From contig CBCXTV010000001.1 of the NCBI GenBank assembly GCA_965178125.1, positions 186,001 to 250,000 of the forward strand: DNA of 64,000 nt, written 5' to 3'. The stretch's first letter is position 1. Every line of letters begins with the position of its first letter. Source of the DNA: Bilabrum cf. latius. Its lineage: Eukaryota. A model generated the notes under the pieces. That model had not been told where the DNA came from and did no database searches. It worked only from the letters and a program-made list of their open reading frames with translations. The position numbers and the translations under genes were made by a program. This document shows positions 6,835 through 27,093 of the stretch, in pieces.

Positions 6835-6995
6835 ACGGCGGGCGAGCCGTTTTTCAAAAGGAGCACGGGTCCTTCGGGACGCCATTTCACTTACGGCGGG
6901 CGAGCCGTTTTCCGAATGGTGCGGGGGTCCTACTGATGCACACGGCGATCGCTGGTTCACTCACGGCGGGCGAGCCGTTTTCCGAATGGTGCGGA
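6835..6995 (+). repeat. Three copies of ACGGCGGGCGAGCCGTTTT(CCGAATGGTGCGG), each a small hairpin
   Basis: Motif at ~6835, ~6893 and ~6963; ACGGC...GCCGT is self-complementary. Confidence 0.8.
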
Positions 6996-7514
6996 GTCCT
7001 CCAGATGACCACGGTGATGGGTGGCAGCATGTCATAGGCGCGCCGTCGGAAGCTTCCCCTTCGAGTGATGCCTAAAACTGAGAAACCTGGAGATCCTAGC
7101 ATCGTATGGAGGCAAGAGGTAACACCTTGGGGTCCGTTCTCCGCTTCAATTCCTGTCCCAAATCCGATTCCCATTTCGAGACCGAAAAAGGTGACCCGGA
7201 AAACGACGGTACTTATTTCTGAACCGTTTTCCGGACGCTTTCCGGGTCTCCCATGTGACCGCTTTTTGCGTACCGAAACACGTTCCGCGCGTGAGGAGCA
7301 GATGCGGATCTCCGCGGGGTCCTATTTGTGTCTTTTTTCGGGGACGAAATCGGGCGCACTTCTCGTGCCGATTTGTGGTCGTCTCTGAAACCGGCTGCGA
7401 GTCGGGAAAGGTGCCCGAGATGCTTGTGTCCTTGGCTTCGTATTTCTCCGCATATTCTTCAAACGCGGGCGGCAGTGGCTCCTGCGCGGGAGCTTCCCGA
7501 GTGGGTCCGTCGTG

Positions 7515-7711
7515 CAGTGCGCTGGGTAGGTCCGCAGGTCAAGGAGGCGCTCGCAGTTATAGACGTAGGTGGAGTTTGCGAGCTGCCGGCCGACATGCTC
7601 ATGTGGTGACCGGAGGTCACCACATGAGCATGTCGGCCGGCAGCTCGCAAACCCCACCTGCGTCTATAACTGCGAACGCCTCCTTGACCTGCGGACCTAC
7701 CCAGCGCACTG
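7515..7711. repeat. 97-bp near-perfect inverted repeat with a 3-nt loop
   Basis: Arms 7515-7611 and 7615-7711, loop GGA, 3 non-Watson-Crick positions; the right arm ends in sequence homologous to ORF910 (NCERLLDLRTYPAH). Confidence 0.95.
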
Positions 7712-7791
7712 AGCAGACAACGCATTTGTGGTCCCCCTCCACGTCGGCATGGGCTTGAAGTGGTACCTCAGGAGGATTTCACTTGCGCCGG

Positions 7792-8695
7792 CCCCCAGGA
7801 TTTCGCCAAAAATGGCCGATCCGCACAAGGAATTTAAGTTGCGGCGACACAGCTCGGACCCTGGCTTTTTTTTGGCTGTTTCGGGGCCCCAAGAGGGCTC
7901 CCGGCCCCAAAAAGGGCAAAACGCGAGGTTGTGGTGGAAAAAATGGGCCCCAAGGAGTCTCCAAACGACGCAAAACGCCACGTTGTGGTGGATTTTAGAG
8001 CCCCTAAATCGCCCAAAAAAGACGCAAAACGCCACGTGGTGGTGGATTTTAGAGCCCCTAAATCGCCAAAAAAGACGCAAAACGCCACGTTGTAGTGGAT
8101 TTTAGAGCCCCTAAATCGCCCAAAAAAGACGCAAAACGCCACGTTGTGGTGTTTTTTTTGAGCGTTTTCGGGGGGCTCGGAAGGGGACCCCCCCAGGATT
8201 TGGCCAAAAATGGCCGATCCACACAAGGACTTTAAGTTGCGGCGACACAGTTCGGGCCCCGGTTTGTTTTTGCGGTTTGGGGGCCCCGAGAGGGCTCCCG
8301 GCCCCAAAAAGGGCAAAACGCGAGGTTGTGGTGGAAAAATGGGCCCCAGGCAGCCCCAAACGACGCAAAACGCCACGTTGTGGTGGATTTTAGAGCCCTA
8401 AATCGCCCAAAAAAGACGCAAAACGCCACGTTGTCGTGGATTTTAGAGCCCTAAATCGCCCCAAAGAGACGCAAAACGCCACGTTGTAGTGGATTTTAGA
8501 GCCCCTAAACCGCCCTAAAAAGACGCCAAACGCCACGTTGTGGTGTTTTTTTTGAGCGTTTTGGGGGGCCCGGAAGGGGACCCCCCCAGGATTTGGCCCA
8601 AAATGGCCGATCCACACAAGGAATTTAAGTTGCGGCGACACAGTTCGGGCCCCGGGGTTTGTTTTGCTGTTTGGGGGCCCCAAGAGGGCTCCCGG
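7792..8695. repeat. Satellite: 53-54-bp monomers inside a ~395-bp higher-order repeat
   Basis: GACGCAAAACGCCACGTTGTGGTGGATTTTAGAGCCCCTAAATCGCCCAAAAAA at 7967, 8021, 8074, 8128 and again from ~8362; CCCCCAGGATTT..CCAAAAATGGCCGATCC at ~7792, ~8190, ~8583. Confidence 0.93.
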
Positions 8696-11513
8696 GAGGC
8701 CCTAGAGTGGCCCTTCTCCGCTTCAATTCCTGTCCCAAATCCGATTCCCATTTCGAGACCGAAAAAGGTGACCCGGAAAACGACGGTACTCTCCGTCACT
8801 CCATCTGGCGGCGAAAATTGCCTCAGTTTCCGGTCCCCGATTCCGGGCCCAGGGACCCCCGAAATTCCCGATTCCGCGCAGTGCCGAAAGCTCGACATAA
8901 ACCACAAACACGACACACAACACAACACGATAGCGCCTCCCCACGCGCGGGATTGGGTCCTTCCGCTCGCTGCATGTGAGCTGCAGTGTGTTCTTGCCGG
9001 GAATGTCACTGGAAGTCGCGCTGCAGTCTGCTCAGGGCGCCTTATGACCATGAAGGCGTCTCAGCACCCGCGACGGCAAGAGGGGGCACGCACGACGTTG
9101 CGAAGCACCCGCCCTGGGTGAAGAAACTGCGTATCCACAGGAGTCACGTTCAGGTGCGCGAGAATTGGAAAGGCGGGGTAACTGGTGCAGAGGAGCTTGT
9201 TCGCAGCGCGGCTTCCACCAGCGCCGCTGACGGTAAGATGCATCGGTCTCGGTACATGAGTCGGCACGGTGTTGCGTGATTGACTTCACGATGCGGGAGT
9301 GTGCAGCCTTCCGCAGCGGGAGAATTGTATCTCCCCACGACCGCCGAAAAAAAAAAGAAGGCTATGCTGGACTCGTTCCAGGGAAGGCTATGCGATGAGT
9401 ATCTCTAGGCGCTTTCCGGAAGACCCACCCACTACACGCTGGTCAGCCCTCCCAAGCGGGAGTGAACCGCGGATCCGCGGGCCCGTGAGCGCTGCTGCTA
9501 CGATCATTTCTGCCCGTTTGACTCTCGCCCACTCTTGCCGTGACCAAAGACGCGCAGATCCTTATGACGCATGACACCTCGTCGAGGTGTCGAGACTGCC
9601 TCACATTCCCGTTACAAAGACCCACAGCACTGCGACAACGAAATCGGTCACGAAGAGAGCAAGAGGCCGCGCACCTGAGCATCACAAAAACCCCGAGAGA
9701 CATAAACAACACCGTCCCGTGAAGTCCCTGCGACGAGGGGATGCTAAGCGGCTCCCACGGCGGCTCCTCTGCGGGAAAAGCTGCCGCAGACCTCGAGATG
9801 GGATGCACATGACTGCGAAGATTGCGGAACTCGTCCGAAGCCGGTCGCACGAGGGTCACAGCGAATGGAGGCATATCTATGAAATAGAGTCTGCGTGCAA
9901 AGCAGCATTCCAACGATCGTCCGCATTCTTCCGAGCAAATCCTTGGGAGCACACATCCTGCGGACGACATCTCTTTTCTATCCACCCCAGCGTACTCCCC
10001 GCACACACTTCTCGCGAATGATTGAGAATTCTGTGCGGCACATGTAATATCAGGCTACCATGATACGCGGAATGGCGTGCTATTGCTCGCACGTTCGTGC
10101 GCCCCCTTCCGAATGCGCTTACCACATCACTATGTTCGTCGGCAACCGTATACACCGTAGGGGTCTTCCCTCCGACACCAAGCGTACACGACTGGCCGTA
10201 ATAGCGCAGCGTAGATGTTTCGGACGTCGCCCAGGACAAGTGTCGACGCCCGGTTCGTCACGATCACTACGTGTGCACTTCACTCACCGCCCTCCAGCCG
10301 CTAGACTTCTTTTGGAGCGCGACATCCTACGACGCGCTATGACACGTAGCCGTAAACCGCAGACGGCCTCGCGTTCACTGCTTGCAGCGCAAGAGCGTGA
10401 ACAAGAACCGCCCGCGTGGCACACCTTCGCAGGCGCGGAAGACAAAAAGTTCCTTCTAAGCTTGTATTCGGGTCCGAAAGCCAAATTCCACTTCGGGGTC
10501 GAGAAGGGCGACCCGGGAAATCACCGTACGCTCTGTGAATCCATTTCCCGGGGAAAGTCCCCGAGTTCCCGCTACCCGGTCCCAGGCCCAGCGACCCAGG
10601 AAAGTTCCCGTCCCCCCGCATGCGGAAACCTCCCACGAAGCACGCCCACCTCACGCTTCACACGCAAAAGTCCAGGAGTCAAATCCATTCCGGACCCAGC
10701 AGTTCACCCCCGTGACGATTGGGAAAGGCTCTTGCACACACCTTCTCGTCCGAGCAGTCTATGGAGCACACACCTGTCTTCGTTGCCTTTTCCGGCCAAA
10801 AATGCAGGGAGTTCGAAGGGGAAGTAGCAAGCGCGGAAGACCGCTTTCGAAACGCAGGTGCTCAGGGAAAAACAACCAGAGCGTCCCTGATCCTCGGCAG
10901 AGCCGTCCAGGAGGGACGGGCACGGACGGGCATCGCAGATCTTGCAGCGCCACCATTCGCCGGGATGGGCGACCGGACGAGGGCGACCACAAGTACGTAG
11001 CGTGCGACGTCCGTCAGTCGCCATGTTGCGCTGATTCGCTTTCGCGGCACGACTTCCAGGGCCGGCCTTACTCACTCCTCGGAGTCCGCGTGTGGATTCT
11101 CCCCTGCGCATGATCTGCCGCTCTAGATGCTACACAAAGATCCCGCTCGGATGACCCCCTCTGTGCATTCTGCAAGATTTTACGCGCCTCCATTCAATGC
11201 GCGAAGCATGCACCGCAGCAGTCTGAGTCCGGTGACCACCTTCAATAGCGTGGGACAAATTCCGTCCGCGATGTGCATTCGGGCATGCTCCCCTTTCCGA
11301 GTCTCTGTGACCCGTAGTGCGTCCGCGGCCAACGACTCAGGACTCCACGATGGTACGCACGAGTTGCATTCCTTGCACGAAGCGTGCGGAGAGAAAGCGA
11401 TGCTCAGACATCGAGGCGCTTGGAGGGTCTGCACGCGACATGCTTCGAGAGGCCATGCAAACATGCGAAACCAGAACTGAGGTTCCTCATCGTTCCTGCT
11501 GTCGAGCGCTCAA

Positions 11514-14246
11514 TTGGGGCATCGGATCAGGACGAAGCTCGCGAAGAGAGGGCGCGGGTGTCCCCATCCAAAAATCCGCCGCCTTCAAGGCTCATGTTCC
11601 CGGATCCTGCATTCGCGAGTTTCGGGAGCAGAAGTGCAAGATCGCCGCTGGACACACAGCGCATGCCATTTCCCGTCTCTGGAGATGTCGGGCTTCCAGG
11701 CGCAATTCGGACACCATCGCCAGGACCTCGGGAAGATGACATGTCTGCTGATCTGCAGGGAAGAGTCCCGCTTCGAGGAGTGGCGACAAAAAAAAGGGGC
11801 GCGAGAACTCCAGGAGCACATGGGAGCGGTCCTTCGGCTCCCCAATCCAGTGTTTCCGCAGACCGACAGGGACCCAGATGGACGCGACATCGTCAAAGAC
11901 CAGGCCCTCTTGGATATCTTCTCCGGCAAGATAACGGACTGGAGCAAATACAATCCGGCCACTGTTGGGGCGATCCAATCCCATCGAAACGCATGGCTGT
12001 GGGCTGAGAACCACACGCCGACGGAATGGCTCATGGTTGTCGAAGATGATATCGAACCTCGCGAAGCATGCGTGGATCGGCTACTCGTAGTTCTTCACGC
12101 CATCGCGAAAAACCCCAAGGTGACGCAGATGGCCATGTTAGCGGGGTCAGAAGCACCGAGAATGGTCACCCTCCAGCACGAAAACTCCACCTCCATCCAC
12201 AATTGCGAGCGCCTCTTGGACGTGCGGACCTATCCGGCGCACTGGGTAGACAACACATTTGTGGTCCCCTACCACGTCGGCATGGGCCTAAAGTGGTATC
12301 TCATCAGCCCGGAGGGGAGGAAGGCGCTCCTGAAGATGCGGATCCCGAACCGAAGCTTCGAACGCTGCGTCTGGCGCCGCCTCTTCGACACGTTCCAAGG
12401 GCCGGTATGGAAGTGGGGAGATTGCCTCCGCATGACATCTGTGCTGGCAGCCAGCCCGGTCCTCGCATCGACTCCCGAGAGCATGGACACGGAGTGGGGG
12501 GGCTCGGGACGACGAAGTGCGGATGCAGGGCACAGTATGAAACCGTACATAATGGTCGACCCGAGTGACGACTGGACTCTTGGCGAGCGATTAAACACAT
12601 TGTCCGTCGTGATGTCCGTGTGCGCGGCCCTGAGTTGGGGGGTTGTCCTCGTCTGGGAAAAAACAGAGCGCGTGCCCATCTCCTACGAAGACTTGTGCGG
12701 TGTTCACGAGCACGCCGGCGAAACCAACACGTTCGTCCACCTCCTCCAGGACAAACGCGGCGGGTCGTATTCGTACTTCCTGAGGTACGGAGACATCCGC
12801 ATCCACGTGGTGCAGCCGATGATGTGCATCCCCACCCTCGACAGAATGCTCGACATGGTAGCCCTGAAGAGGCCCAAGATGAACACCCTGCCTCCCTTGA
12901 AATGGCAGACCGCTCGATGGATCCAAGTCAAGCAGAAGTGGATCGATAAACTCCACACGGAGATGCCGGGGGCCGAGCTGCCCTCATGGCTGGAGTGGCC
13001 ACCCTCAACCCACGCGCTTGTCCTCTGCGACGACAGGGACTTGGCGGCGCACTGCCTCGAGGGGAGATGCCAAAAGGAGCAGCAGGAGTGGATGAACGAC
13101 GGGAAGGACAACAGCATCCAGCACTACATCCTTGAGGCAAAGCAAGCGCTGCAGAACGAGTTGGAAGACATCCTAAAGGGGGACAGCAGCTCACGCCTCG
13201 TCGTGATCCGCATGACAACCAAACTGCTGGGACAGGTCTGGGTGGACATGATGAAGCACCTCACGAAGCAGTTCGGGAAGCGCATCATAACGCCAACGTT
13301 CCTCCTCCCGAAAATGATCCCCAAAAGGAGGCACGACGAAAAGAACCCGAGTGATGATTGGATTACTTGGGGAGCATCCTTGGCGAAAACCGTGGGCCTC
13401 CTCACGCTCATACCTCCGATGCAAGTGCACTATCCCATCATGAGCTGGACCGTGGCCTGGAACCACTTCATGTTTAAGGGCAGGACTGCCACGGACACCG
13501 TGATCCCAGACGTCATCCGAACTCTGTACGCTCCGCACAAGAGCAACAGGAAGCAGCTCCTCAAGAACGGCCCGCTGTGCCAGACGAGGCGCGCCGTGCT
13601 GGACTCGCCCGCACTGCGGGAGATTGCGAACAACTACTCAAGGGCCAAGGACAAGACCTATAACCTCTTGAGTTATTCCAAATGGTTTGCCGAAGAAGCC
13701 ATGTGGCACATGATCAAGTACGCGGAAAGCACGCAGTGCATCGTCGACCCGTTCGTGAGCCGCCAGTGCCAAAAGGTCTTCGAGCACATCCCCTCGGACG
13801 ACATCGGCCATGCGGACGCCCGGCTCCGGTACAACCTTCAGGATGCCGACGACCGAGGTTACCGCTTCAACGCGGGGCATCTCTACACCGCGGTGCAGGG
13901 CATCAAAACGGTGAACATCGCATACAACAAGTGGCTCACCGAGCAGGCACAGAGTCATTCCGAATGGAGCTGGGGCAAAACGTTCATCAAGCTTGTGATC
14001 AACCAGTGGCGGCAGCAGCAGGGCAGTGAGCCGTATGACGTGGACGAGGAGGACTACGTGAGCCTTCCGCGGACCTTCCACGGGAATTCGTTGAAGCTCG
14101 CGAGGAGCGTAAGCCTCCAGGACACGAGATCCTGCTCCAGATCGTCCTCATCCTATTCCAGGTCGCCCTCCACCAACAGGACTGAGGCACAGCCTTCGAA
14201 GAGAGCGCGCCTGACCCCGGCACCCGGCGTAAAGCACGAGCCCTGA
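11514..14246 (+). CDS. ORF910: large protein with an N-terminal glycosyltransferase family 25-like domain (first ATG at 11685)
   Basis: Longest ORF with globular composition; GAIQSHRNAW...WLMVVEDD...GLKWYLISPEGRKALLK fits the GT25 pattern G-x2/3-SH-x3-W / hhhEDD / G-x3-Y-h-h-S-x2-G-x3-LL; C-terminal ~550 aa unrecognised; NLS-like PSKRARL. Confidence 0.8.
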   Translation: MGHRIRTKLAKRGRGCPHPKIRRLQGSCSRILHSRVSGAEVQDRRWTHSACHFPSLEMSGFQAQFGHHRQDLGKMTCLLICREESRFEEWRQKKGARELQEHMGAVLRLPNPVFPQTDRDPDGRDIVKDQALLDIFSGKITDWSKYNPATVGAIQSHRNAWLWAENHTPTEWLMVVEDDIEPREACVDRLLVVLHAIAKNPKVTQMAMLAGSEAPRMVTLQHENSTSIHNCERLLDVRTYPAHWVDNTFVVPYHVGMGLKWYLISPEGRKALLKMRIPNRSFERCVWRRLFDTFQGPVWKWGDCLRMTSVLAASPVLASTPESMDTEWGGSGRRSADAGHSMKPYIMVDPSDDWTLGERLNTLSVVMSVCAALSWGVVLVWEKTERVPISYEDLCGVHEHAGETNTFVHLLQDKRGGSYSYFLRYGDIRIHVVQPMMCIPTLDRMLDMVALKRPKMNTLPPLKWQTARWIQVKQKWIDKLHTEMPGAELPSWLEWPPSTHALVLCDDRDLAAHCLEGRCQKEQQEWMNDGKDNSIQHYILEAKQALQNELEDILKGDSSSRLVVIRMTTKLLGQVWVDMMKHLTKQFGKRIITPTFLLPKMIPKRRHDEKNPSDDWITWGASLAKTVGLLTLIPPMQVHYPIMSWTVAWNHFMFKGRTATDTVIPDVIRTLYAPHKSNRKQLLKNGPLCQTRRAVLDSPALREIANNYSRAKDKTYNLLSYSKWFAEEAMWHMIKYAESTQCIVDPFVSRQCQKVFEHIPSDDIGHADARLRYNLQDADDRGYRFNAGHLYTAVQGIKTVNIAYNKWLTEQAQSHSEWSWGKTFIKLVINQWRQQQGSEPYDVDEEDYVSLPRTFHGNSLKLARSVSLQDTRSCSRSSSSYSRSPSTNRTEAQPSKRARLTPAPGVKHEP

Positions 14247-15120
14247 CGACGAAATGCCGCAGAACAGCGCGTTGCGGGGAGACAAAGCTCCGCGGGCAAC
14301 AGCAGAAGGCCGCCGAGCGCCGGAGTTGGAGGGTCACATAGTTCCATCGGTCCCATTCTCTCCGGAAGTCGCATAGCACGTAGAGATCCGCATGCTCTCG
14401 GTGCATGAACGCTGGCAGCACGCAGTGCCAAAGTCGCAAAGCGCTTCAGAGTCACAAGTCCAGAAGTTCTTCTGCCAATGTGTGTCCTCTTCCCGCTCAT
14501 GTGTGCATCCTCGGAGGAAGTCTGGAGATGACAGGACCCAGCACGCAGCACATCAGAAGTCCTTTTTTAAAGCGGCATCGTCAGACAAAAATCTGGAACG
14601 CCCTTCCGCAAAAAAGAGTGCTGCCCACAGAAAAAAGGGAAACACCTGAGGCCCCAGAAGCCAAAGGGAGGACCGCGAAGGACGCAGTTTCGAGGTCACA
14701 CTTTCCGGGACCAGTTTTGAGCCCAAAAAGGGGTACACAAGAGGAAAACACGATGCGGGAGGCTTGAAATTGTCACCGAAAACGGGCCCAAAATTGGGAC
14801 CCCTTTTTCGCAAATTTCGCAGCATCCAGACGACCCAGAAAGGCTTTCCCAGGCGCCGCCTCGAAGCTCACCTTCTCGCATGCAACCATGACGCAGCCCC
14901 ACCTCCTCATGCAGACGCGTCTGAGAGACCCCGCAGTGGAACTTCTCCCATTCTGCGCAGGAAGCACCTCAGTCTACAAGGACCCGCGCACTTCTTACCG
15001 CACCACCTCCATGTGAAAGCACTTCTCGCGGAGTTTTTTTCGGGCCCAGGAATACAGCAACTGCCAGAAGCTTCGCACAGAAAAGCAGCCCACTCAGGAA
15101 GCAAACTCACTGCACACCCC

Positions 15121-15591
15121 ATGGCGAGCGACGCAGAACCGGAGGACGCAATGCGGCTCGACTCCCCTAGAGATGCGGATGCAGCGGCGCCACCCGAAGC
15201 GACGGAGGCAGGATCACAGAAACCAGATCATGCGCAGCAGTTCTTCGAGGAGCCCTGCCCGAAAGACGGACACATGGAAGCGCCAGAGAAGACCGCCAAG
15301 ACGGACGAACCTGGCGACACACCCATGTTCGTCGACAAGTGGACGGCAGCGATCACACGCCTTACCGAGGAGCGCAAGGCTCTCAAGCTCGAGCAGCGGG
15401 CTAAAACGAAGGCCATCCGCAAAACCATCCGGCAGAAAAGGCGCACCATGAAGAACGCCAAAAAACTCACAGACGACGAGCTCGCCCAAATCGTGCTAGA
15501 CAGGAAGATCTTGCAGTTGGTGCAAAAAGAAGAGATCGCAGCACGCAGCTCCGCCAACTCCTCAACGAGCCAGGCGAAGTCGACCTTGTGA
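15121..15591 (+). CDS. Small protein with an acidic N-terminus and a basic coiled coil (156 aa from ATG; ORF open from 14764)
   Basis: KWTAAITRLTEERKALKLEQRAKTKAIRKTIRQKRRTMKNAKKLTDDELAQIVL is a helical, K/R-rich segment. Confidence 0.65.
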   Translation: MASDAEPEDAMRLDSPRDADAAAPPEATEAGSQKPDHAQQFFEEPCPKDGHMEAPEKTAKTDEPGDTPMFVDKWTAAITRLTEERKALKLEQRAKTKAIRKTIRQKRRTMKNAKKLTDDELAQIVLDRKILQLVQKEEIAARSSANSSTSQAKSTL

Positions 15592-16012
15592 GAAGCGCTT
15601 CCCGTGTTCAGAGAACCGAGGATTACAGATAGACCCCGCGTCACAGAAGCCATCGCAAGAGGGCAGAGCGTCAAGTACAGCGCAGTCTTGACGGACACAG
15701 ATAGCCCGAGCAGCACAAAGCAGCGGATGCGGCTGCCCAGCGGAGTCGCGCACTCGGACAGCATACACGGGACGTGCTGGCAGAAATCACTCAGTCCGCG
15801 AGCACCGTCGTCAAGAGCACGGGAGGGGCAGACTCGACATGCACAACTTTGAAAAACGGGAGGGCACGAAAGGAAGACAAATTTGGCATTAATCCTTGAT
15901 TACCCCCGCCCCCCCGTAGAATCAGAGCGAGGAGATATGCTCGGAAGGTCCGGGGGGCAGTCGCAGAAAAGTGCACGCGAAAATAAGAGGAAAGGAGACC
16001 CCCCAAACCCAC

Positions 16013-16257
16013 GTAGTGCGACCCTCGGGGGTACCCTCTAAGGTACTAAGAATCCTTCCCCCGAAAATCGCACTACATCGGTCCCTGGCGTCGGGGAAAG
16101 CGGAAAAAAGGGGAGCACTACCGTGAAAAAATCCTGCATTTTACAGGAAAATCGGAGCACTACGTGTCAAAAACTGGGGGTTTTTGAGGTTTTTTTTCCA
16201 GAAAAACGGCATTTTTTTATGTAAAAACCGCGCGAAACGAGCACTACCGAGCACTAC
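16013..16257. promoter_or_regulatory. Candidate rolling-circle origin / Rep-binding region: stem-loop plus iteron-like GCACTAC repeats
   Basis: GTAGTGCGA (16013-16021) pairs with TCGCACTAC (16068-16076); inner TCGGGGG/CCCCCGA and GTACC/GGTAC; GAGCACTAC at 16113, 16155, 16239, 16249; ~500 bp upstream of Rep. Confidence 0.6.
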
Positions 16258-16765
16258 ATCGCCTCCTCCAGTCGTGTTTCGCATTTTTTTCGCTGGCCGA
16301 AAATGTCTCCGAAGGCGCTGCCTCGAGGGGGGGTTCCGATGGCTGATTTTGGGCGTTCTGTTGTCGATTTCGCGTGCATTTCAGGTTGTCGGCGAGGCCT
16401 TTTTGGCGTATGTCGCAGTTCGGATGCCCTCGAACGTCGTGTCTCATGTGGTATTCGCCGGTTTCTATGTTGGAGAAGGCGGTCGGTCGATCATCCTCTC
16501 TGGCAGGCTCCGAAGTGCGTTTGTGATCGTGCTAATTGCAACGCCATGCTTTCCTTCGTTGGCTTCGAGAATCCTTCCCTCGGAAGCGGTAGTACCTCGC
16601 CCAGGGCGGCACGAGCTGCAGACTCAGCTGCCTCGGTGCTCATGTGTGTCCCGTGTCAGCAGTTTCGGTGTTACGAACAGCAAGGATTCTGGGCATTGCG
16701 TGTCGGAGGCAAGTGTTCTATCTTGAGGCATTCCGCGATTCGTCGAAGGATTATTTGCGCAAATA

Positions 16766-19051: not shown

Positions 19052-19255
19052 CGCCGGCCGCTGAGGTTTTCAGTCCGGTTCACACGAGCGCCGGAGCCGC
19101 AGCGGCAGCCGCTTCGGTGCTCCTGAAGGTCTAATGTCCTCAATGCGTTTCGTGTGCAAAAAGGATGTGGTTTCTACATGGGGGCATTCCGCAAGTTTCA
19201 TGTGGTCCGTCGCGTTCGTCCGGGGGAGTGCTTGCCTAGTATTGGGAGCTTGCCT

Positions 19256-19307
19256 GACACACACACACGTGGCACCCAGCCTGATGGGTTGCAAGTGTGT
19301 GTGTGTC
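19256..19307. other. Hairpin with a (CA)n/(TG)n stem downstream of rep (also at 46451-46502)
   Basis: GACACACACACAC (19256-19268) pairs with GTGTGTGTGTGTC (19295-19307); inner CCCA/TGGG. Confidence 0.7.
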
Positions 19308-19455
19308 TCCGCAGTGCCGCGGTTGGGACCCGGCGGGTCGTTTGCTTTTACGTCGCCGCGTCGCGCGCCGACGAGACATTTCTTGGTCTCAGAAGCCTCT
19401 GCTTCCGGTAGGCGCGCCGTGTACACTCGCGGGCCGAAGGTGGGTGCGTTGCTTG

Positions 19456-20148
19456 ATGGCCTACGTCGGTATCGCCGATGCACCGTATGTGCCCGTGGTT
19501 GCCGCGTCGACCTCCGAGCACGCCCCGGAGGGCGAGGTGGAGATGATGCTTGCGCCTCTTGCCGGAGATGTCGGTTTCAAGCGGCCTCGCGTGTTTCCTC
19601 CCGGTTCGCGACTTCTTCCTAAGTCGCCGGCCCATCCGGCGGTGCTCATAACAGCGCTCGGCAGTGAGGCACCCCAGGACACACAGTGCGTCGTTTGGTC
19701 GGACTCTAAGGCTTTCGACCTCGCGGAGTTTGTATGCTCTTCCTGCGGCTGCAATCGTGTCATGGCGGACCTGAATCATCGTATGCGTGATCGTCTCGTA
19801 CGTCGCGTGCAGCGCACGCTTTATGCCGATGATTCTCCGTGCGGCAGGGGTGCGATTTCGTGTCGTGCTTGTCGCGAGAAGGCGCGCGACGCGGCGCCGA
19901 AGACGTCGATTATGAACGCGGCGAACAAGAAGAAGATCTCGGGAACTCTTCGCATGCAGTTGGATCTCATTGTAGAGACCGGGGAGCGGAAGGGTCAGCG
20001 TTGTACTGCGGAGAAAATTCTGACATTGGGAACGATGAAGCAGCACAGGGTTTTCGAGAGGGACCTTTACGATGAGGCATGGCGCGGGCTTGTTCGTCTG
20101 TCTGGACGCGAGGCTTGGAGCGATGACGACTCGTGGTCTCCGCGTTGA
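19456..20148 (+). CDS. Hypothetical protein with CxxC pairs, putative zinc binding (230 aa from ATG; ORF open from 19297)
   Basis: FVCSSCGC...PCGRGAISCRAC; protein-like composition. Confidence 0.6.
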   Translation: MAYVGIADAPYVPVVAASTSEHAPEGEVEMMLAPLAGDVGFKRPRVFPPGSRLLPKSPAHPAVLITALGSEAPQDTQCVVWSDSKAFDLAEFVCSSCGCNRVMADLNHRMRDRLVRRVQRTLYADDSPCGRGAISCRACREKARDAAPKTSIMNAANKKKISGTLRMQLDLIVETGERKGQRCTAEKILTLGTMKQHRVFERDLYDEAWRGLVRLSGREAWSDDDSWSPR

Positions 20149-20349
20149 GCTTGCGTGACGGTTTTCCCTCTTAACCTGGCCTCTTGCGTGGCGCTGCTTC
20201 CGCGTGTGGCCTGAGCGTGCGACCTAAGCGTTCGGCCTGCTGTCGCGTGTGACCTGAGCGAACGGGCGCTCGACAGTATCCCGCGTTTGTTGCTTCTGGG
20301 GTTCAAGAAACTTGTACTTTTTGGGCTGTACGGTGGTCAGTGGTGCACG

Positions 20350-20500
20350 GTTCGTTCGCAGCCTCCGCGTTGTTGGAAAGCTATGGTGGAGCATGGTTCT
20401 TTTCGCAGCCTCCGCGTTGTGATCAAGCTACGGTGGAGCATGGTTCGTGAGCATGGTTCTTTTCGCAGCCTCCGCGTTGTTGACACGTGAAAGCTACGCG
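20350..20500 (+). repeat. Three imperfect direct repeats with core TTCGCAGCCTCCGCGTTGT...AAGCTA (also at 47545-47695)
   Basis: Core at ~20355, ~20402 and ~20462, with GAGCATGGTTC sub-repeats. Confidence 0.85.
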
Positions 20501-20982
20501 AACGTGACCACACAATAGGCCATACCCCAGGTGAAATCCGGACTCGGACATCCAGACGAAACGGCATCATGCACACTGTTGAACACACAAATGACACTGA
20601 GCTCCACCGTAACGTAACTTTCCATCACCACCTGGTTTATTTTCTCCGCGATGGCAGCTTAGCGGTGACGCTGTGTCTTCGGGCATGAAGGGGCAAATCT
20701 TTGATTTTTTGGGCCCTGTTTCGGTCACCGAAAAGTCGTGTGATTTCTGGCGCGCAGGAGGAGTGACGCAAGGTATTTCTGAACCGTTTTCCGGACGCTT
20801 TCCGGGCCTCCCATGTGACCGCTTTTTGCGTACCGAAACACGTTCCGCGCGTGAGGAGCAGATGCGGATCTCCGCGGGGTCCTAGTTGTGTCCTTTTTCG
20901 GGGGACGAAATCGGGCGCACTTGTCGTGCCGATTCGTGGTCGTCTCTGAGACCGGCTGCGAGTCGGGAAAGGTGCCCGGGAG

Positions 20983-22275
20983 ATGCTCGTGTCCTTGGCT
21001 TCGTATTTCTCCGCGTATTCTTCAAACGCGGGCGCACGTCTCCTACCGATTCGTGGTCGGTTTCCGAGGCCGATCGCGAGTCGGGAAATGCGCCCGCGAT
21101 GCGCTCTCGATCTCGGAAAGGGCGGGAGTCCGTTCTTGCATTCGGAATGGGCGGGGAGTTGCTTTTCCTGGGAGCATGTGCGAGATTCCTTCTCCGCGGG
21201 TCCTCTTTCGGCTTCGGCAGTCAGCAGCGCACTCTGCGGGAACGGCATTCTCCGAGTCTCTTTGCCGATGATGTCTGAGGAGAAACCCTCCGAGAGCATT
21301 GCTGTTTCCTTGGGAGACGGCCGCAATCTTCGTGCGCGTCGAGGCGCCGGTGATATGGGAAACGAGGGCGGCATGTTGGCGCGCGAGGTCGACGCGCCGG
21401 CGGAGCACGCCGGCGCGGCGGCAAGCGTCGATGATTCGCTCGGCCCCCACATCGAGAGCGGCGGCGCGGAGGCGGCGTCCACGGGGATGCTCGGAGAGGA
21501 GAGCGGCAAGGCAGCGCCGAAGGAGGACGCCGAAGACGACGGCGGCAAGAAGACGGAGGAGGAGGATGCTCGCGGCGGTGGACGTGCTGTGGTGCCCGGA
21601 GGTAATGACGACGTATGGACCAACGCAGCAGCTTGGAAGGCGGGTGGCGGCGTGGCAGCCGGGGCGGTCTCTGGCGCTGATAGCTGGGATCAATGGGGGA
21701 CCCCTGCGAAGTCGTCATGGGGGGAGACGTACGTGCTGCGGCAGGTCGCGTCGGAGCCGGCGGAGGAGGCGACATGGACTTGCAACGCGTGCCAGTGCTG
21801 CAAGCCCCGGTCGGCGTACTTTAAGAAGTGGAAGGACTGGATCCAACCAGTTTGCCGGGTGTGTTGCGACAAGTTCGACAACGCGACGCCGTGGTGGGTG
21901 TGGTGCAAGAGCTGCAAAAACGAGTATCCGGCGTACCGATTTCCCCAGATCCGCCGGAAGAAGGAGAACTTGCGCTATTTCTTCCCTGAGGACTGGTGCG
22001 CGAAGTGCCTGGTTGCGCGTGGCTGGAGTCTCCATGATGTCCGTTCCTCTGCGGGTGAAGCGAAGCGTTGGGTGCCAAAAGCTGGCGCGAATACCGGTGA
22101 CGGCGACAACGACGCTCGTGCTCCCGCACGCGACGAGCTTCCTGCAGGAGGCGCCGCCTCCTGCAGCAACGCCGTGCGTCAGAGTTCTTCGCGTGACGAG
22201 GCCTTGGATGACATCAAGCGGGCCATGGAGCTTCTCCAGAATGCGGAAAGGTTCCTCCTCACGATGCCAGCGTGA
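20983..22275 (+). CDS. ORF430: protein with two tandem C4 (treble-clef-like) zinc fingers and an acidic low-complexity N-terminus (true start may be 21268)
   Basis: WTCNACQCCKPRSAYF...VCRVC and WCKSCKNEYPAYRF...WCAKC. Confidence 0.7.
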   Translation: MLVSLASYFSAYSSNAGARLLPIRGRFPRPIASREMRPRCALDLGKGGSPFLHSEWAGSCFSWEHVRDSFSAGPLSASAVSSALCGNGILRVSLPMMSEEKPSESIAVSLGDGRNLRARRGAGDMGNEGGMLAREVDAPAEHAGAAASVDDSLGPHIESGGAEAASTGMLGEESGKAAPKEDAEDDGGKKTEEEDARGGGRAVVPGGNDDVWTNAAAWKAGGGVAAGAVSGADSWDQWGTPAKSSWGETYVLRQVASEPAEEATWTCNACQCCKPRSAYFKKWKDWIQPVCRVCCDKFDNATPWWVWCKSCKNEYPAYRFPQIRRKKENLRYFFPEDWCAKCLVARGWSLHDVRSSAGEAKRWVPKAGANTGDGDNDARAPARDELPAGGAASCSNAVRQSSSRDEALDDIKRAMELLQNAERFLLTMPA

Positions 22276-22475
22276 CGCGGGAGCTTCCCGAATGGGTCCG
22301 TCGTACTGTGAGGGCGCTCCGGAAGGAAGAGCGCGAGTGAGTCATCCTTGCGCCGAGGTGAGCGCGACGTCGGAGGAGCACGGTCGTTTGATTGGGAACG
22401 ATATGGTCGGCAGAGTGTGAAAATCCGAGTTTCTCGTGCAGGATTGGGCAGCTCTCTAGATATCTTGCCTGGGAA

Positions 22476-23455
22476 GGGTGTGATGTGGTGGGAGCGCTTC
22501 CGCCTCACGTGGCAGACGTCCACACTTCCTGGTTCCCCGGCAGGCTGTTTGGCGAGACGGAGTGGCAAAGCATCCGCCTGCTGATTCCTACTTTGTTACC
22601 TCGATTGTGAGCTCGGAGCTTGGGGCGGAGGATTCTGCGGGCAGCTCATGTGTGCCTAGAGTGTCATCCCGCGACCCTCTGACTTCTGTTCGTGGCTTTA
22701 CCTCTTCGCGCAGGAAGATTCCTCATGAGGCAAGCCCGGTCCGAACTCGCGTGGGATGCCGTGCGCTGGTGCGGCTTCCACTCATCCCCGGGGTGGGGAG
22801 CGCTGGGTAAAGGATCGTCTGTCCCTGCAAGTTTCGATTCGGCGAGGTGCGGCAGCATGACGCGGACCGAGGTGAAGTCCTTTGTCCGCGATAGGTCGCC
22901 GCGTCGCGCGGTGGCGACCCCACAGCGCCCCAATCCCATTCCGGAGAGGGGGTGTGATGCAGTGGGAGCCCTTCCGCCTCACGTGACAGACGTTCACACT
23001 TCCTGGTTCCCATAAGGTCTTCAGCACAGCGCATGCGAGGCAGGCTGTTCGGCGAGACGTAGTGGCATCGCCCCCGCCTGCTCATTCCTACTTTGTTACC
23101 TCGATTGTCAGCTTGGGGCTCGGGGCGGCGGATTCAGCGGGCAGCTCATGTATGCTGGAGTGTCATCCCGCGACCTCTGACTTCTGTCCGTGGCTTTACC
23201 TCTTCGCGCAGGAAGATTCCTCATGAGGCAAGCCCGGTGCGAACTCCTGTGGGATGCCGTGCGCTGGTTCGGATTCCACTCATGCCCGATGTGGGGAGCG
23301 CTAGGGTAAAGGATCGTCTGTCCCTGCAAGTTTCGATTCGGCTCGAGTCAATGTGAGGAAGGAGAGGTGCGGCAGCATGACGCGGAACGAGGTGACGTCC
23401 TTTGTCCGCGATAGGTCGCCGCGTCGCGCGGTGGCGACCCCGCAGCGCCCAAACC
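22476..23455 (+). repeat. Diverged ~470-500-bp tandem duplication (also at 49671-50650)
   Basis: GGGTGTGATG..GTGGGAGC.CTTCCGCCTCACGTG at 22476 and 22949; both copies end in GGTGGCGACCCC.CAGCGCCC. Confidence 0.9.
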
Positions 23456-23898
23456 CCGCCCCGCCTAGTCCTCACTCGACAGCGGTGTCGAACCTGCAGC
23501 AGCGCTTCGAGAACATGCAGCAGCGTGCGGAAAGCTTGAGCGCTCAGCTGGAGTACGCCCAAAGTGTGATCAGGCTGCTCTCAGGCCTGTTGCGCGATGA
23601 GGCTCCTCGGTTCTATGCAGACTTTGATCCCGTGATTCGGCGTGCGATGTCTGGCGCAAGCGGCTCCGTTGCGGGTAGGTCTTTCCGTCTTGTGGACGGA
23701 GGCGTCATCCACGGACCTGACACAGCAGTCGCTGCTCCTCCGCGTCGTCTCATCGTTGAGGTGCGTACGGACTGGGAGATGACCGAGACTGCCTCAACTG
23801 TGCTGGATTCCTCAGGATCAGACGACATGGGTTCCGAGGACTCGCCGCCGCCGACCGTCGTCCTCCCCAGCGGCGCGGCGGGCGCCGGCGGTGCCTAG
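23353..23898 (+). CDS. Hypothetical coiled-coil protein (ATG at 23377)
   Basis: VSNLQQRFENMQQRAESLSAQLEYAQSVIRLLSGLL shows a heptad pattern. Confidence 0.5.
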   Translation: MRKERCGSMTRNEVTSFVRDRSPRRAVATPQRPNPAPPSPHSTAVSNLQQRFENMQQRAESLSAQLEYAQSVIRLLSGLLRDEAPRFYADFDPVIRRAMSGASGSVAGRSFRLVDGGVIHGPDTAVAAPPRRLIVEVRTDWEMTETASTVLDSSGSDDMGSEDSPPPTVVLPSGAAGAGGA

Positions 23899-24436
23899 TC
23901 CTCGGCAGCTCCTGCATCGGAGCCTCCTGTCGAGATTCGATCGCGCAACGTCGTTCCTTACATTGCTTGCCGTCGCATGTGCCGGGCGGTGGTGGGTGTG
24001 CGTGTTCGCCGAAAGTTCCCGGCCTCGTCTTCCTCAGGAGAGCTCCTCGACCCGAAATTGGCAGCTCAGCGCTGCCGTGGCCGATACAGTACCCGTGCAT
24101 GGCCAGTTGGCAGCTACGCGCTGCCGTTGCCAATGTCGTCCGCACGAGAGCAGAGTGGCAGCTCAGCGCAGGCGAGAAACCGCGCTCGCAATGCTGCGAG
24201 GTGTATTCAATGCTGTGCACGTGTCTATCCCGCTCCCTGGTTTTGTCTCGCTTGCGCCAGTGTGACCGCAGCAGAGCGGGTGCTTCCCGTGCGTCTTCAG
24301 CTTTGAGCACTCCTCCAGCGACAGGAAGGCATTCGCTTGCTCTCGCTCCCCGCCTGCGTCCTATCCCTCCCGGGTATCTTCAGAGGCCACAGGCAGTGCG
24401 AAGCTTGGCAGCGGGTCCGTCCGCGTCGTTTCGGCT

Positions 24437-26074
24437 GTGAGCGATCTTCTGCCCGGTTCCTCACGCGTCATAATGTCCTCTGCTTCGGTGCCGGATCAGC
24501 TCGCACGGATCAGTAAGGAGCTGAAGTGTCTCAGAGACGCGAGACAACGGGCGCGCAATGGGCTGCGCCATCCGTGGTTGCGCGCCATGGAGGCACAGGT
24601 CGCTGAGGTTATTCGTCATCACCCCGGCGGTGGCGAGGCAGCTCTTCGAACCTATGTCTCTCGTCAGTTGCAGAGTCGACAGGTTTCCACGCGGACGGCT
24701 TCGCAGGAGGAGTTTCAAAGGCAGGTCGATGAGGAGGTCGCGCTCACCATGAGGCGCCCAGCTGAGGCGTGGCAGCGAAATCCTCTTCGCTCATGTCATC
24801 GAGAGTCCGTGGCACGCGCAGAGACCTTTCTCGCCGAGGCTTCTGTCGTTGCTTGGATCGACCATGTGAACGAGCAGCGTGGGTGTGCTCCAACTGGGAA
24901 CATGGTTTTCGCCATGCTTGCGAGGATGGGCGTTCGCGCGGGGAAGGACTCGGCTCGACGGCAGTGGCTCCTGCGCTTCCGTCGTCGTTGGCGGCTTCGG
25001 CATGGCCGATTGAAGAAGCAGCCCCCGGTAACACTCGATTACGTCAGACTCGCGTGTCGTGTCTTCTATCAGTGGATTGAATTCGCAGAAGCGCGAGTGC
25101 CCCCCAACCGCCGCCTCGTCTTTGTGAATTTCGATGAGTCCAGCGTGCCCTTTGCCTTTCCGGGAATGCGCGGGTACATCGCACCGAGGTCAGGAACGGA
25201 GCCCGCTTCGCTTGGTTCGCGCACGGAGCGCCTCGCCTCGAATAGCAATCGAGGATCGTACACCTTTCTGGGTTTTATTAGCGACTGCCCGGAAATCCAG
25301 CGACGACTCCCGCGTATACTCATCGGGAAGCACACGCGGCTGAGCAAGCGCTTGATGCGTGGGGCGCCGAACCAAATGGTGGACGGAATGGAAGTCTGGG
25401 CCCGAGAGAGCTCGTGGGTGACGCAGTCCCTCATGTTCGACATTCTGCGTCGGCTTTTCGCTTCTTGGATGGACATTCAGCATGAGATCTATCCAATAGT
25501 GATACTTGACTGCGCGCCCCAACACATTTCCACTGAGATTGTGAACTTCGCACACGGCCTTGGCATGGATCTCGTGTTTATTCCTGGTCGACTCACCTTC
25601 CTGCTTCAGCCGTTGGACGTTCTCGTCTTTCAGCTTCTTAAGCGCGACCTTCGGGAGACGTGGATGCAGGAGCGCTCGCGTCATGAAGCGGGTCATGTCG
25701 ATGTCTCTTGCCATCTCAGGGTTGTCGCTGAGTGCACGAAGAGAGTGCTCTCGTCTGGCTCGTGGCAAGGCGCTTTCGATATGACAGGCATTACCAGCGG
25801 CAGGCGCCGCTTGCATTCGACCCTACGGCGCTTGTTTGAGTGTGACATGGAGGACATCTCCAGCGATGCTCCGTCTGTCGACCAGCTCCGCTTCATCAGC
25901 AGTCCGCAGCAGCCTCTCCCGCACGATGCGCTCATCAACAGGGCCCCAGTCGCGTCCGGACACGCGGTCGACGGAGGCGTCCACGGTGGTAACGCTCGCC
26001 GCGTGCCTCGTGGCCGCAGACTAAACGGATGGACCCCCCGCGATCGCGCTCACCCCTCGGCGGCCATGCCGTGA
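24437..26074 (+). CDS. pogo-family (DDE_1) DD35D transposase (first ATG at 24473)
   Basis: CENP-B-type HTH end QWLLRFRRRWRL; D1 in VFVNFDES; SSWVT; D2 in IVILDCAPQH; D3 in FIPGRLTFLLQPLDVLVFQLLK; 35 residues between D2 and D3. Confidence 0.92.
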   Translation: MSDLLPGSSRVIMSSASVPDQLARISKELKCLRDARQRARNGLRHPWLRAMEAQVAEVIRHHPGGGEAALRTYVSRQLQSRQVSTRTASQEEFQRQVDEEVALTMRRPAEAWQRNPLRSCHRESVARAETFLAEASVVAWIDHVNEQRGCAPTGNMVFAMLARMGVRAGKDSARRQWLLRFRRRWRLRHGRLKKQPPVTLDYVRLACRVFYQWIEFAEARVPPNRRLVFVNFDESSVPFAFPGMRGYIAPRSGTEPASLGSRTERLASNSNRGSYTFLGFISDCPEIQRRLPRILIGKHTRLSKRLMRGAPNQMVDGMEVWARESSWVTQSLMFDILRRLFASWMDIQHEIYPIVILDCAPQHISTEIVNFAHGLGMDLVFIPGRLTFLLQPLDVLVFQLLKRDLRETWMQERSRHEAGHVDVSCHLRVVAECTKRVLSSGSWQGAFDMTGITSGRRRLHSTLRRLFECDMEDISSDAPSVDQLRFISSPQQPLPHDALINRAPVASGHAVDGGVHGGNARRVPRGRRLNGWTPRDRAHPSAAMP

Positions 26075-27093
26075 CCTCGACCACGACCATGTCAGGGGCG
26101 AACGCGACTTCGTCAACCTCGAGCACGACCATCCCAGCGGCGAACGCGGCTTCCTCGATGGGATCCCTGACCCCGACGAAGCTTCCCCGACCTCGGCCAC
26201 GTGAACCTGCAGGCGCATTCTTGCCCGATGTGCCCGCGCAGGTGGCGGCCTGCACGGCGTGGGCGCCACCGTTTCGTCGACCAGACAGCTCAGCCACTCC
26301 GGCGACGCGCGAGGCGGCAACGTCCACGTGCATCAATCCGTGGACCGCTCTCTCCTGGTATCCGACACCACCGCAGCCGACGGACCCCCCTTCCGACAGG
26401 CCTCGCGAGGTACCGAACCGGAGCTCCCGGCAGCAGCGCAGGCGTCATGCTTGGGGCGGCACGTGGGTGTTCGACGACGCCATTACGCTCAGCGATTGCG
26501 GGTCGAGGGTGCAGATCGACGCGCCGCAGTCGAAGCTCTTGGCGATGGTCCTGCCCCGGAAGTCGGGCCAGTGGATTCCTCGTAGGCTGCGCTCGCGTAC
26601 GATCTGGTATTTGGCTGGGGAGCAGTCGGCCGTGATCACCAACCTCAAGTGCCAGGCCTGCAGTCGGGTCAAGCACGCGGACAGCTTCAACCCGAAGAGC
26701 TTGCGTCGGGCTCAGTACTCGTTGCTGCATTCCCTGTGGCCCGGCTACATACGACGTACCGAGCGGTCTATTTGGTGCACGCAGTGTGCGGTGGAGGACC
26801 AGTTGATGCAGGGCAACTTTCCGGACGGCTACTGTTTCCGGATCCGCGCCACACTCGAAATTTGCCATCAAGATCGCGTCGCGGCCAAGCTGTTTGCAGT
26901 GCACGACAGTAACGCTCTCTTCGAGCAGATCCCGCTGAGCTCCCGTGCGGCCATGGACGTGGCGGAGCAGTTGCGCCGATACTGGCAGGATGCCGTGTCC
27001 TCAGACGGCCAGAGCAACATCTTCCACAGCGACCACGTTTCGACAGACGACGACTCTGAGTTCGCACCGGGCGGACCGGAGAGCGTGCCGTGA
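26029..27093 (+). CDS. ORF354: S/T/P-rich N-terminus plus a C4 zinc-finger-like domain; overlaps the transposase 3' end by 46 nt
   Basis: LKCQACSRVKHADSF...IWCTQC, the same finger style as ORF430. Confidence 0.65.
   Translation: MDPPRSRSPLGGHAVTSTTTMSGANATSSTSSTTIPAANAASSMGSLTPTKLPRPRPREPAGAFLPDVPAQVAACTAWAPPFRRPDSSATPATREAATSTCINPWTALSWYPTPPQPTDPPSDRPREVPNRSSRQQRRRHAWGGTWVFDDAITLSDCGSRVQIDAPQSKLLAMVLPRKSGQWIPRRLRSRTIWYLAGEQSAVITNLKCQACSRVKHADSFNPKSLRRAQYSLLHSLWPGYIRRTERSIWCTQCAVEDQLMQGNFPDGYCFRIRATLEICHQDRVAAKLFAVHDSNALFEQIPLSSRAAMDVAEQLRRYWQDAVSSDGQSNIFHSDHVSTDDDSEFAPGGPESVP

Follow-up and report, generated by a model that had tools for sequence, protein, structure and literature searches.

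Two enzyme genes in a tandemly repeated unit

The 64-kb stretch analysed here, positions 186,001 to 250,000 of contig CBCXTV010000001.1 (assembly GCA_965178125.1, filed under Bilabrum cf. latius) and hereafter designated as the window, contains two intact enzyme genes that form the core of a putative composite mobile element. The first encodes a Rep-like protein of 761 aa (16766-19051, forward strand), recognised by its predicted structure and conserved residues, and the second a pogo-like DDE_1 transposase with a DD35D motif (24437-26074, same strand), recognised by its Pfam match and acidic triad. A previous sequence-only reading had seen both genes, together with about six accessory open reading frames (ORFs), as one compact cassette spanning 8700-27093. 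Self-comparison with blastn showed that it does not stand free: this interval is the gene-bearing portion of a unit of 27,194 bp, in which scrambled fragments of the unit's own genes make up about 5 kb, and the window comprises 2.35 copies of this unit arranged head to tail.

Copy 1 occupies positions 1-27194 and copy 2 positions 27195-54389, followed by a partial copy 3 of 9,611 bp (54390-64000) that ends at the window edge, all on the forward strand. Positions 1-36805 match 27195-64000 at 99.92% identity, and 1-9611 matches 54390-64000. The GC content is about 0.60 over the whole window, all of which is unit sequence, with no host flank within its 64 kb. Copies 1 and 2 are separated by 20 substitutions and one 1-nt indel, and the partial copy 3 by 6 substitutions from copy 1 and 7 from copy 2. 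The differences are substitutions and not homopolymer slips; at three of the sites that differ between copies (an insertion at 10706, and positions 20661 and 24232), independent sequencing runs show variation too. Since the copies differ by substitutions, some of them seen in independent runs, the window physically consists of non-identical 27.2-kb units joined head to tail, and is not a circle duplicated by the assembler. Both enzyme genes are intact and free of internal stops in copy 2 as well (Rep at 43961-46246 and transposase at 51632-53269, an offset of 27195), with three nucleotide differences from copy 1 in the Rep gene and none in the transposase gene. All eight differences between copies 1 and 2 in the Rep gene (three) and in ORF853, a large accessory gene described below (five), change the amino acid, a number too small for significance.

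The Rep-like protein can be divided into a variable N-terminal region of about 370 aa, a HUH nuclease domain (aa ~370-530), a helical linker, and a P-loop ATPase domain (aa ~590-750) resembling that of superfamily 3 (SF3) helicases. At the sequence level it matched no Pfam family, even at E ≤ 10, and was assigned to none of Viral_Rep, Gemini_AL1, RNA_helicase and similar families. Searches of PDB sequences with phmmer or a profile returned chance matches only (allophycocyanin, E = 0.92; RBX1, E = 0.05), and Pfam searches with 43 family members gave weak generic AAA matches and a single one to PPV_E1_C (E = 0.056). Using the conserved C-terminal 392 aa, HMMER searches against 1.84 billion representative proteins revealed a large family, with 1365 representative clusters at E ≤ 1e-3, of which 896 reach E ≤ 1e-10 and 212 reach E ≤ 1e-30. 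Residue numbers below refer to this 392-aa fragment (+369 for the full ORF). An alignment of 43 sequences sharing 25-52% identity showed E74, H87 and H89 (HUH), Y137, K142, G256, E303, N349 and a few others to be invariant, and T11, GKT261-263 and D302 to be conserved in at least 90%. The family displays the full set of HUH motifs (I, II and III), followed by Walker A, Walker B and the asparagine of motif C; in the structural model, the elements carrying the nuclease motifs are strands 7-13, 68-75 and 86-93 and helix 124-139. With the catalytic residues of both domains invariant or conserved in at least 90% of these sequences, nicking and ATPase activities have presumably been retained.

An AlphaFold (AF2) model of the 392-aa fragment, built on the family alignment, reached a predicted local distance difference test (pLDDT) score of 94.3. 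Foldseek searches of the PDB with this model were led by Rep68 of adeno-associated virus 2 (AAV2; E = 2.2e-7) and a redondovirus Rep (E = 6.4e-7), with B19 NS1, papillomavirus E1, Rep40 and the large T antigen (LTag) of SV40 at later ranks. In BFVD, the best match had E = 5.8e-14 over about 400 columns, and among the top 50 entries, many of which are nameless, nearly all named ones were Reps from CRESS DNA viruses (whose circular, single-stranded genomes encode Rep), two parvovirus NS1 proteins also being present. The nuclease domain was predicted with even higher confidence when folded alone (pLDDT 97.1), and a scan of 48,161 chains with this domain placed Rep or NS1 nuclease domains at all of the top six ranks: redondovirus 9pqf (Z 8.3, root-mean-square deviation 3.1, 105 of 113 residues aligned) and the full-length chain 9pqq (Z 8.2), nanovirus 6h8o (7.8), geminivirus 1l2m (7.4), circovirus 7kii (7.2) and B19 NS1 (7.2). 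These Z values are moderate, two of the 48,161 chains scoring at Z ≥ 8. Likewise, the five best Foldseek matches of the isolated domain were geminivirus and redondovirus Reps at E values of 2.8e-3 to 1.5e-2, none at or below 1e-3. Overall, the modelled fold and the motifs support a HUH nuclease joined to an SF3-like ATPase, the latter on the strength of structural matches, as the sequence-only reading had proposed for an intact Rep. Three features depart from typical CRESS Reps, namely a helical insert in the nuclease domain, a Y-x4-K spacing in motif III, and the variable N-terminal half of about 370 aa.

The transposase is a protein of 545 aa when read from a GTG start, or of 533 aa from the ATG at 24473. 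It matched Pfam DDE_1 with E = 2.1e-11 and 44.1 bits (cut-off 22), and its acidic triad, D290/D415/D451 in the numbering of the stop-to-stop ORF, is near-invariant in 13 aligned sequences. The 35 residues between D415 and D451 correspond to the spacing for which pogo elements are called DD35D. At the N-terminus, a match to HTH_Tnp_Tc5 was weak (E = 0.077) and, at 13.4 bits, fell below the cut-off of 22.2. A word index returned five homologues, none of them named; an identical 545-aa protein is already on record (P0166). The 3' end of the gene overlaps the next ORF, ORF354 (26029-27093), by 46 nt, an overlap already noticed in the letters of the sequence.

Rep and transposase in relatives and sequencing runs

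Metagenome contigs from JGI and ENA were scanned with degenerate patterns derived from an alignment of eight Rep sequences, which yielded 39 loci with Rep relatives. All window ORFs of at least 80 aa were compared with these loci by tblastn (E ≤ 1e-4). Matches were confined to Rep, its fragments from the mosaic region described below, an ORF overlapping Rep in antisense, the transposase, and one weak antisense match of the latter. The transposase co-occurred with a Rep homologue in 12 of the 39 loci (E values of 1e-11 to 1e-24), always on the strand of Rep, and Pfam confirmed the DDE_1 domain in six of them (L002, L006, L012, L021, L023 and L025). Most of the 27 remaining loci are contigs of 1-3 kb, too short to show the gene; it was found in nine of the ten loci having at least 3 kb upstream of Rep. 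The distance from the transposase stop codon to the Rep ORF is 357-459 nt in eight loci. The loci with Rep relatives fall into subfamilies at 77-99% nucleotide identity, and maximum-likelihood trees of Rep and of the transposase both recovered the groups {window, L002} (support 98/99), {L012, L015} (87/100) and clades {A+B} (95/100). A co-oriented DDE_1 gene near Rep in relatives, together with agreement on the deep clades, argues that the transposase is an integral partner of Rep and not a nested insertion, as had been supposed from its overlap with ORF354. The relatives thus do not show the pattern of Rep homologues without a pogo gene nearby that would have spoken for a chance association. 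The expected linkage was found, but the gene order accompanying it differs between clades.

Between subfamilies, the ratio of non-synonymous to synonymous substitution rates (dN/dS) was 0.16-0.33 for the catalytic part of the transposase and 0.31-0.39 for Rep, values that indicate purifying selection on both proteins between lineages. Two further pairs of database proteins are recorded on contigs of equal length, 14,535 nt for P0004 (Rep) and P0169 (transposase), and 25,927 nt for P0158 and P0166, which suggests additional linked copies. Among viral contigs, 13 Rep pattern matches were obtained, none of which was confirmed.

Based on these relatives, the overall architecture of the element varies around a conserved core. 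In each of the clades A, B, C and D, four genes follow one another in the order GT2-like ORF766 (about 770 aa; GT, glycosyltransferase), ORF223 (about 220 aa), transposase and Rep, the GT2 label having been assigned from language-model features only (0.95-0.96). In clade A, inverted repeats bracket the transposase-Rep pair in L021 (1-285 against 5851-5567, 85% identity) and likewise in L026 and L023; positions 5560-7042 of L021 are the reverse complement of positions 1-1481 of L023, which extends the repeat. In clade C, the 17.4-kb contig L006 has inverted arms (1-5634 against 17426-11793) that are 99.95% identical and surround a 6.2-kb transposase-Rep core. The GT2-like ORF and ORF223 sit inside the inverted arms in both clades. 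The earlier observation of no visible terminal inverted repeats (TIRs) is therefore true of the window copy but does not extend to these relatives, in which long inverted repeats surround the pair. L025, of clade B, is directly repeated with a period of about 16.96 kb (1-1667 resembles 16965-18522 at 87-95% identity) and is a second, independent head-to-tail organisation of a Rep-transposase unit in a distant clade. In the clade of the window, Rep precedes the transposase, by 5.4 kb in the window and by 3.6 kb in L002.

The unit is also broadly represented in sequencing data. The Rep-to-transposase stretch (16700-26100) was present at 72-85% of sampled words in 10 runs with six organism labels from six studies, one of which may be the source of the window itself, and in 16 rows from 12 studies when weaker shares were included. 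Contigs from four runs, each of a different study, covered the region 7801-27800 in 30 of 30 bins per run. At most of the listed sites, all four runs depart from the window in the same way, and their kilobase-scale contigs differ by about 0.5%. The joints 8790 to 20774 and 18230 to 26408, both of which correspond to junctions of the mosaic region, occur in each of the four runs, and several more are found in three. Two of the three loose contig ends that were checked lead back into the mosaic region or the rest of the unit. At 21254, contigs of two runs (X6 and X9) diverge from the window and continue for about 235-241 nt with no counterpart in it, either a variant junction or possibly a flank of the array. 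In run X1, the 41,620 aligned pieces (23,207 at ≥ 99% identity, 13,341 at 95-99% and 5,072 at 90-95%) are, by sequence divergence, those of a large polymorphic repeat family, the summed word depth not being a copy number.

Near-identical DNA under many organism labels could stem from an associate or contaminant that the samples have in common, from strains that are related, or from horizontal spread. A prokaryotic origin was rejected, the Rep family being essentially absent from 185,579 prokaryotic species genomes: the single match (L040) lies on a 1,859-nt contig of a proteobacterial metagenome-assembled genome and is probably a mis-binned contig of eukaryotic derivation. We infer a eukaryotic host, and the elements, many relatives of which were found in metagenomes of aquatic origin, probably come from aquatic eukaryotic microbes. 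A search for the relic of the dinoflagellate spliced leader, with a 15-mer and up to two mismatches, gave no match.

A proposed replicating transposon and its alternatives

Known eukaryotic mobile DNA is moved by DDE enzymes, or uses a HUH Rep as its transposase in the case of Helitrons and Replitrons. CRESS-type Reps are otherwise found in small viruses and plasmids, and their integration into genomes is poorly understood. The explanation that we favour, and regard as fairly probable, is that each unit of the window carries one member of a widespread family of composite mobile elements, as yet without a name, that is defined by a co-inherited pair of a CRESS-like Rep and a pogo-like DD35D transposase, accompanied by a large glycosyltransferase-like gene and small accessory ORFs. 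The transposase would excise and integrate the element through terminal inverted repeats such as those of clades A and C, and Rep would nick an element-borne origin and start rolling-circle or rolling-hairpin replication of an excised or resident copy. Replication would generate head-to-tail concatemers, which could then be fixed as the tandem arrays seen in the window and in the ~17-kb period of L025. We infer this division of labour, with Rep replicating the element, the transposase integrating it and the array arising by concatemeric replication. Rolling-circle replication combined with integration by the transposase had already been put forward from the sequence of the window, and is kept here in conditional form; no origin hairpin, outer end of a TIR or target-site duplication was found.

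Several observations weigh against the proposed replicating transposon. On the side of Rep, structural comparison of its full model with VIA aligned the ATPase domain only (Z 11-12 with HslU, ClpX and ClpB; 10.7 with E1) and does not separate SF3 from generic AAA+ ATPases, and its motif III (Y-x4-K) is unlike the canonical YxxK of CRESS Reps. No origin-like hairpin (stem of at least 10, loop of 3-14) was conserved near Rep in the window and seven loci. Within the young subfamily A, the dN/dS of Rep rises to 0.7-1.07, a near-neutral value implying that many copies are decaying. As for the ends of the element, no inverted repeats were found around the transposase or the cassette in the window, and neither a target-site duplication nor a true terminus was seen, the outer ends of the inverted repeats of relatives running off their contigs. 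The arms of L006 reach both contig ends, so that an artefact of amplification or assembly is possible; the contig could be a linear element whose TIRs are very long, or else a chimera formed during amplification or assembly. Linkage has its exceptions too: L009 (4.5 kb upstream of Rep) and L030 (4.3 kb downstream) contain no transposase, gene order varies (Rep then transposase in the window and L002, transposase then adjacent Rep in other clades), and the co-phylogeny rests on about six independent lineages, which amounts to congruence and not to statistical proof. Finally, tandem arrays can also be made by unequal crossing-over, without any activity of Rep.

Among the alternatives, an extrachromosomal replicon was considered, in which the 27.2-kb unit exists as a circle, an episome resembling a plasmid or virus, that is replicated as a rolling circle by Rep, the window being a concatemer or a read-through of several circles instead of an array in a chromosome, and the transposase serving only for occasional integration. 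The lack of host flank in 64 kb of unit sequence, the return of two of three loose ends into the unit, and a 25,927-nt ENA contig close to one unit in length, which appears to carry an identical transposase and a 98% identical ORF853, all fit such a circle, and the occurrence of the same DNA (at least 72% of sampled words) under six organism labels in six studies suits a transmissible element. However, the copies within one molecule differ at 21 sites, which does not agree with a simple assembler duplication of a circle, and scrambled pieces of genes amounting to about 5 kb in each unit would be unusual in a streamlined episome. Pfam scans of the window ORFs recognised no capsid-like or packaging gene, the sequence beyond 21254 in runs X6 and X9 may be a flank or a variant, and the thousands of 90-99% variants in run X1 resemble a genomic repeat family. 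On balance, an episome is unlikely. A cut-and-paste transposon of the pogo type, in which Rep has been co-opted as an accessory (for instance as a nickase-helicase acting at the ends) without replicating the element and the array results from unequal recombination, would account for the inverted repeats that bracket the pair in clades A and C, for a transposase more tightly constrained than Rep (dN/dS of 0.16-0.33, compared with 0.31-0.39 for Rep, which reaches about 1 within subfamily A), and for the want of a conserved hairpin near Rep. It would leave unexplained why the catalytic residues of both Rep domains are invariant or at least 90% conserved in 43 divergent sequences, and why head-to-tail periodicity occurs in two distant clades (the window and L025), as concatemeric replication predicts. 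No DDE transposon is known to need a HUH-SF3 protein, and literature searches surfaced none. Such an accessory role of Rep is accordingly held to be quite improbable.

Coincidence, with an ordinary pogo element inserted beside an endogenous Rep gene and both co-amplified in a host tandem repeat, might be suspected from the window considered in isolation, where no TIRs or target-site duplication surround the transposase and 5.4 kb containing other ORFs lies between the two genes. Linkage of the pair on one strand, found in 12 of 39 independent loci from lineages with 21-35% Rep identity, congruent trees, and a four-gene order conserved in clades A-D effectively exclude such a nested insertion, to which we attach next to no probability.

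More tentatively, and as a possibility that stops short of being probable, the family might represent a previously unnamed superfamily of self-replicating transposons of aquatic protists, combining pogo-type integration and excision, rolling-circle or rolling-hairpin replication by Rep, glycosyltransferase-like cargo and head-to-tail arrays whose units measure tens of kilobases. If so, it would be a single-stranded DNA replicon counterpart of Teratorn and the Polintons, and would connect CRESS-type replicons with DDE transposons as a living link. The family is a candidate for how a Rep replicon gains a dedicated integration module, for how such elements make very large tandem arrays, and for transitions from virus to transposon beyond the Polinton and Teratorn cases. 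It also offers an identity for 1365 unannotated representative protein clusters of metagenomic dark matter, and Rep, being compact and confidently folded with clear active-site residues, makes the central claim amenable to bench experiments.

The pair shares features with several described systems. As in pogo and Tc1-mariner elements, the transposase has a DDE_1 domain with DD35D spacing and, in relatives, lies between inverted repeats; unlike in those elements, Rep and other genes are carried inside, and the inverted repeats far exceed the usual size, those of pogo and Tc1-mariner elements being typically far shorter. Unlike CRESS replicons, no hairpin of the nonanucleotide type was found near Rep in the window and seven loci. 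A CRESS-DNA virus genome was rejected as an identity for the unit, given its length of 27,194 bp, no conserved hairpin near Rep and no Pfam capsid family.

The domain order of Rep, a HUH nuclease with one conserved tyrosine followed by a P-loop helicase, is that of Reps from CRESS-DNA viruses and from pCRESS plasmids (Kazlauskas et al. 2019), which are however encoded on circles of 2-6 kb with a capsid gene and not in a 27-kb unit with a DDE transposase. The closest precedent for the pairing of Rep and transposase is the geminivirus-like transposon of Tuber melanosporum, which combines a Rep-like ORF with transposase ORFs between 37-bp TIRs and is known from 42 copies or remnants, with an interrupted Rep and two damaged (interrupted or truncated) transposase ORFs (Liu et al. 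2011, PMC3198968). Compared by description, both systems are multicopy and place Rep and transposase inside inverted repeats, here in the relatives of clades A and C and not in the window. The Tuber transposon is a single young and decayed family, whereas both genes described here are intact and co-diverge across deep clades, the inverted repeats measure between 285 nt and 5.6 kb, and tandem arrays as well as large accessory genes occur. Moreover, the Tuber Rep is geminivirus-like, while the Rep of the window has no sequence match to Pfam geminivirus families. The view that the pairing belongs to no named class stands within the literature searched: full-text searches surfaced no named class with an SF3-type Rep and a DDE transposase, but the Tuber transposon (PMC3198968) is a precedent, and the idea is not entirely new. 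The novelty lies in how deep, large and conserved the family is, in its module of four genes and in its large tandem arrays, the fusion of a replicon with a transposon being already known as such.

According to the Replitron preprint, IS200/IS605, IS91, Helitrons and Replitrons are the only Rep-based transposons listed; in Helitrons a Y2 Rep is joined to an SF1 (Pif1-like) helicase and a DDE enzyme is lacking, and Replitrons have Rep alone, with no helicase (Craig 2022/2023). Both are mobile elements of eukaryotes that encode a HUH Rep and tend to be amplified by copy-and-paste, as the present family would be; the latter differs by its SF3-like ATPase and its separate DDE transposase. A Helitron was rejected on the basis of a single invariant tyrosine, best ATPase matches to SF3 initiators, and a rank of 36 (E = 0.27) for the Helitron transposase 7lcc, and a Replitron because a conserved P-loop domain follows the nuclease. 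Teratorn, which joins a piggyBac transposon and a herpesvirus, and the Polintons or Mavericks are similar in concept, in that they unite a replication module and a DDE enzyme within long TIRs (PMC10175614, PMC6431247). Their replication machinery, consisting of herpesvirus genes or of a protein-primed DNA polymerase B (PolB), is wholly different, and they have capsid genes, none of which was recognised here (PMC10175614, PMC6431247). Finally, the Terminons of bdelloid rotifers resemble the present elements in their giant size, a rolling-circle Rep that can be carried as an accessory, and head-to-tail arrays (Arkhipova and Yushenova 2019, PMC6431247). They are telomeric retroelements with a reverse transcriptase, an enzyme not found in the unit (PMC6431247).

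Accessory genes and mosaic region

Besides Rep and the transposase, coding-like codon statistics were obtained for five ORFs of the unit, all on the forward strand: ORF853 (11685-14246), 15121-15591, 19456-20148, 20983-22275 and 26029-27093. Those of 8603-9121, 10060-10827 and 16303-17040 were non-coding-like and resemble GC-rich noise. The earlier count of about six accessory ORFs is thus only partly sustained, with several coding-like ORFs, one conserved (ORF853) and one syntenic (the ORF following Rep), but three that do not look coding. Pfam scans of 29 window ORFs revealed no capsid family, remote capsid folds not having been searched for, and an Rfam scan of 1-30000 gave no match.

The largest accessory protein, ORF853 (codon score 0.34, 0.78 GC at third codon positions [GC3]), has eight homologues at 29-98% identity. 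Its Atlas features came closest to GT11/GT25 clusters (0.90-0.91), and two of nine family members gave weak Glyco_transf_25 matches (best E = 0.0053), which provides a lead towards a glycosyltransferase-like protein of the GT25/GT11 type. PDB profile searches with ORF853 and with the ~770-aa ORF of clades A and B returned nothing, and kinship between the two was rejected (hhalign probability 0.1%). Unrelated large ORFs, both glycosyltransferase-like, accordingly stand beside Rep and the transposase in different clades, at 11685-14246 in the window (GT25/GT11) and at 1740-4037 in L025 (GT2); judging from these predictions, cargo of a similar kind may have been acquired on more than one occasion.

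Upstream of Rep, ORF157 (15121-15591; codon score 0.235) may encode a small basic coiled-coil protein, as suggested by its translation. The ORF that follows Rep (19285-20148, with an ATG at 19456) contains a CxxC...CxxC motif and has a syntenic homologue in L001 (3240-3674; tblastn E = 3e-13, 26% identity over 145 aa, with a reciprocal match), the ORF following Rep in both. ORF430 (20983-22275; codon score 0.116) has a Cys-rich C-terminus and is duplicated in the mosaic region, and ORF354 (26029-27093; codon score 0.117, GC3 0.78) has a CxxC...CxxC motif in its C-terminal half and a weak match to Stc1 (E = 0.05). A zinc-ribbon-like CxxC...CxxC motif at the C-terminus is common to 19456-20148, 20983-22275 and 26029-27093, and by this resemblance the three ORFs may be paralogues that encode small factors of the element binding DNA or proteins.

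The mosaic region (3094-8695; scrambled gene fragments at roughly 3.1-8.7 kb), delineated by self-comparison and tblastn, is an assemblage of tandem repeats and displaced pieces of the unit's own genes, whose joints recur in contigs of four sequencing runs. A 499/500-nt repeat at 3178-4176 holds fragments of Rep and ORF853, and the enclosing block (3119-4176) shows periods of 71 nt and 499/500 nt at 97-99.8% identity. Further along are a fragment of ORF354 (4138-4392), nearly full copies of ORF430 (4404-5991), an N-terminal fragment of ORF853 (6028-6531), and repeats of about 400 nt with 85-93% identity (7792-8695). Between the last two, self-comparison revealed a palindrome (7515-7711) with 97-nt arms that are 97% complementary and separated by 3 nt. 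ORF853 is the source of the sequence in the arms, which is related to 12165-12244, and the palindrome could form a long hairpin, which makes it a candidate site of replication or recombination, or else the scar of a rearrangement.

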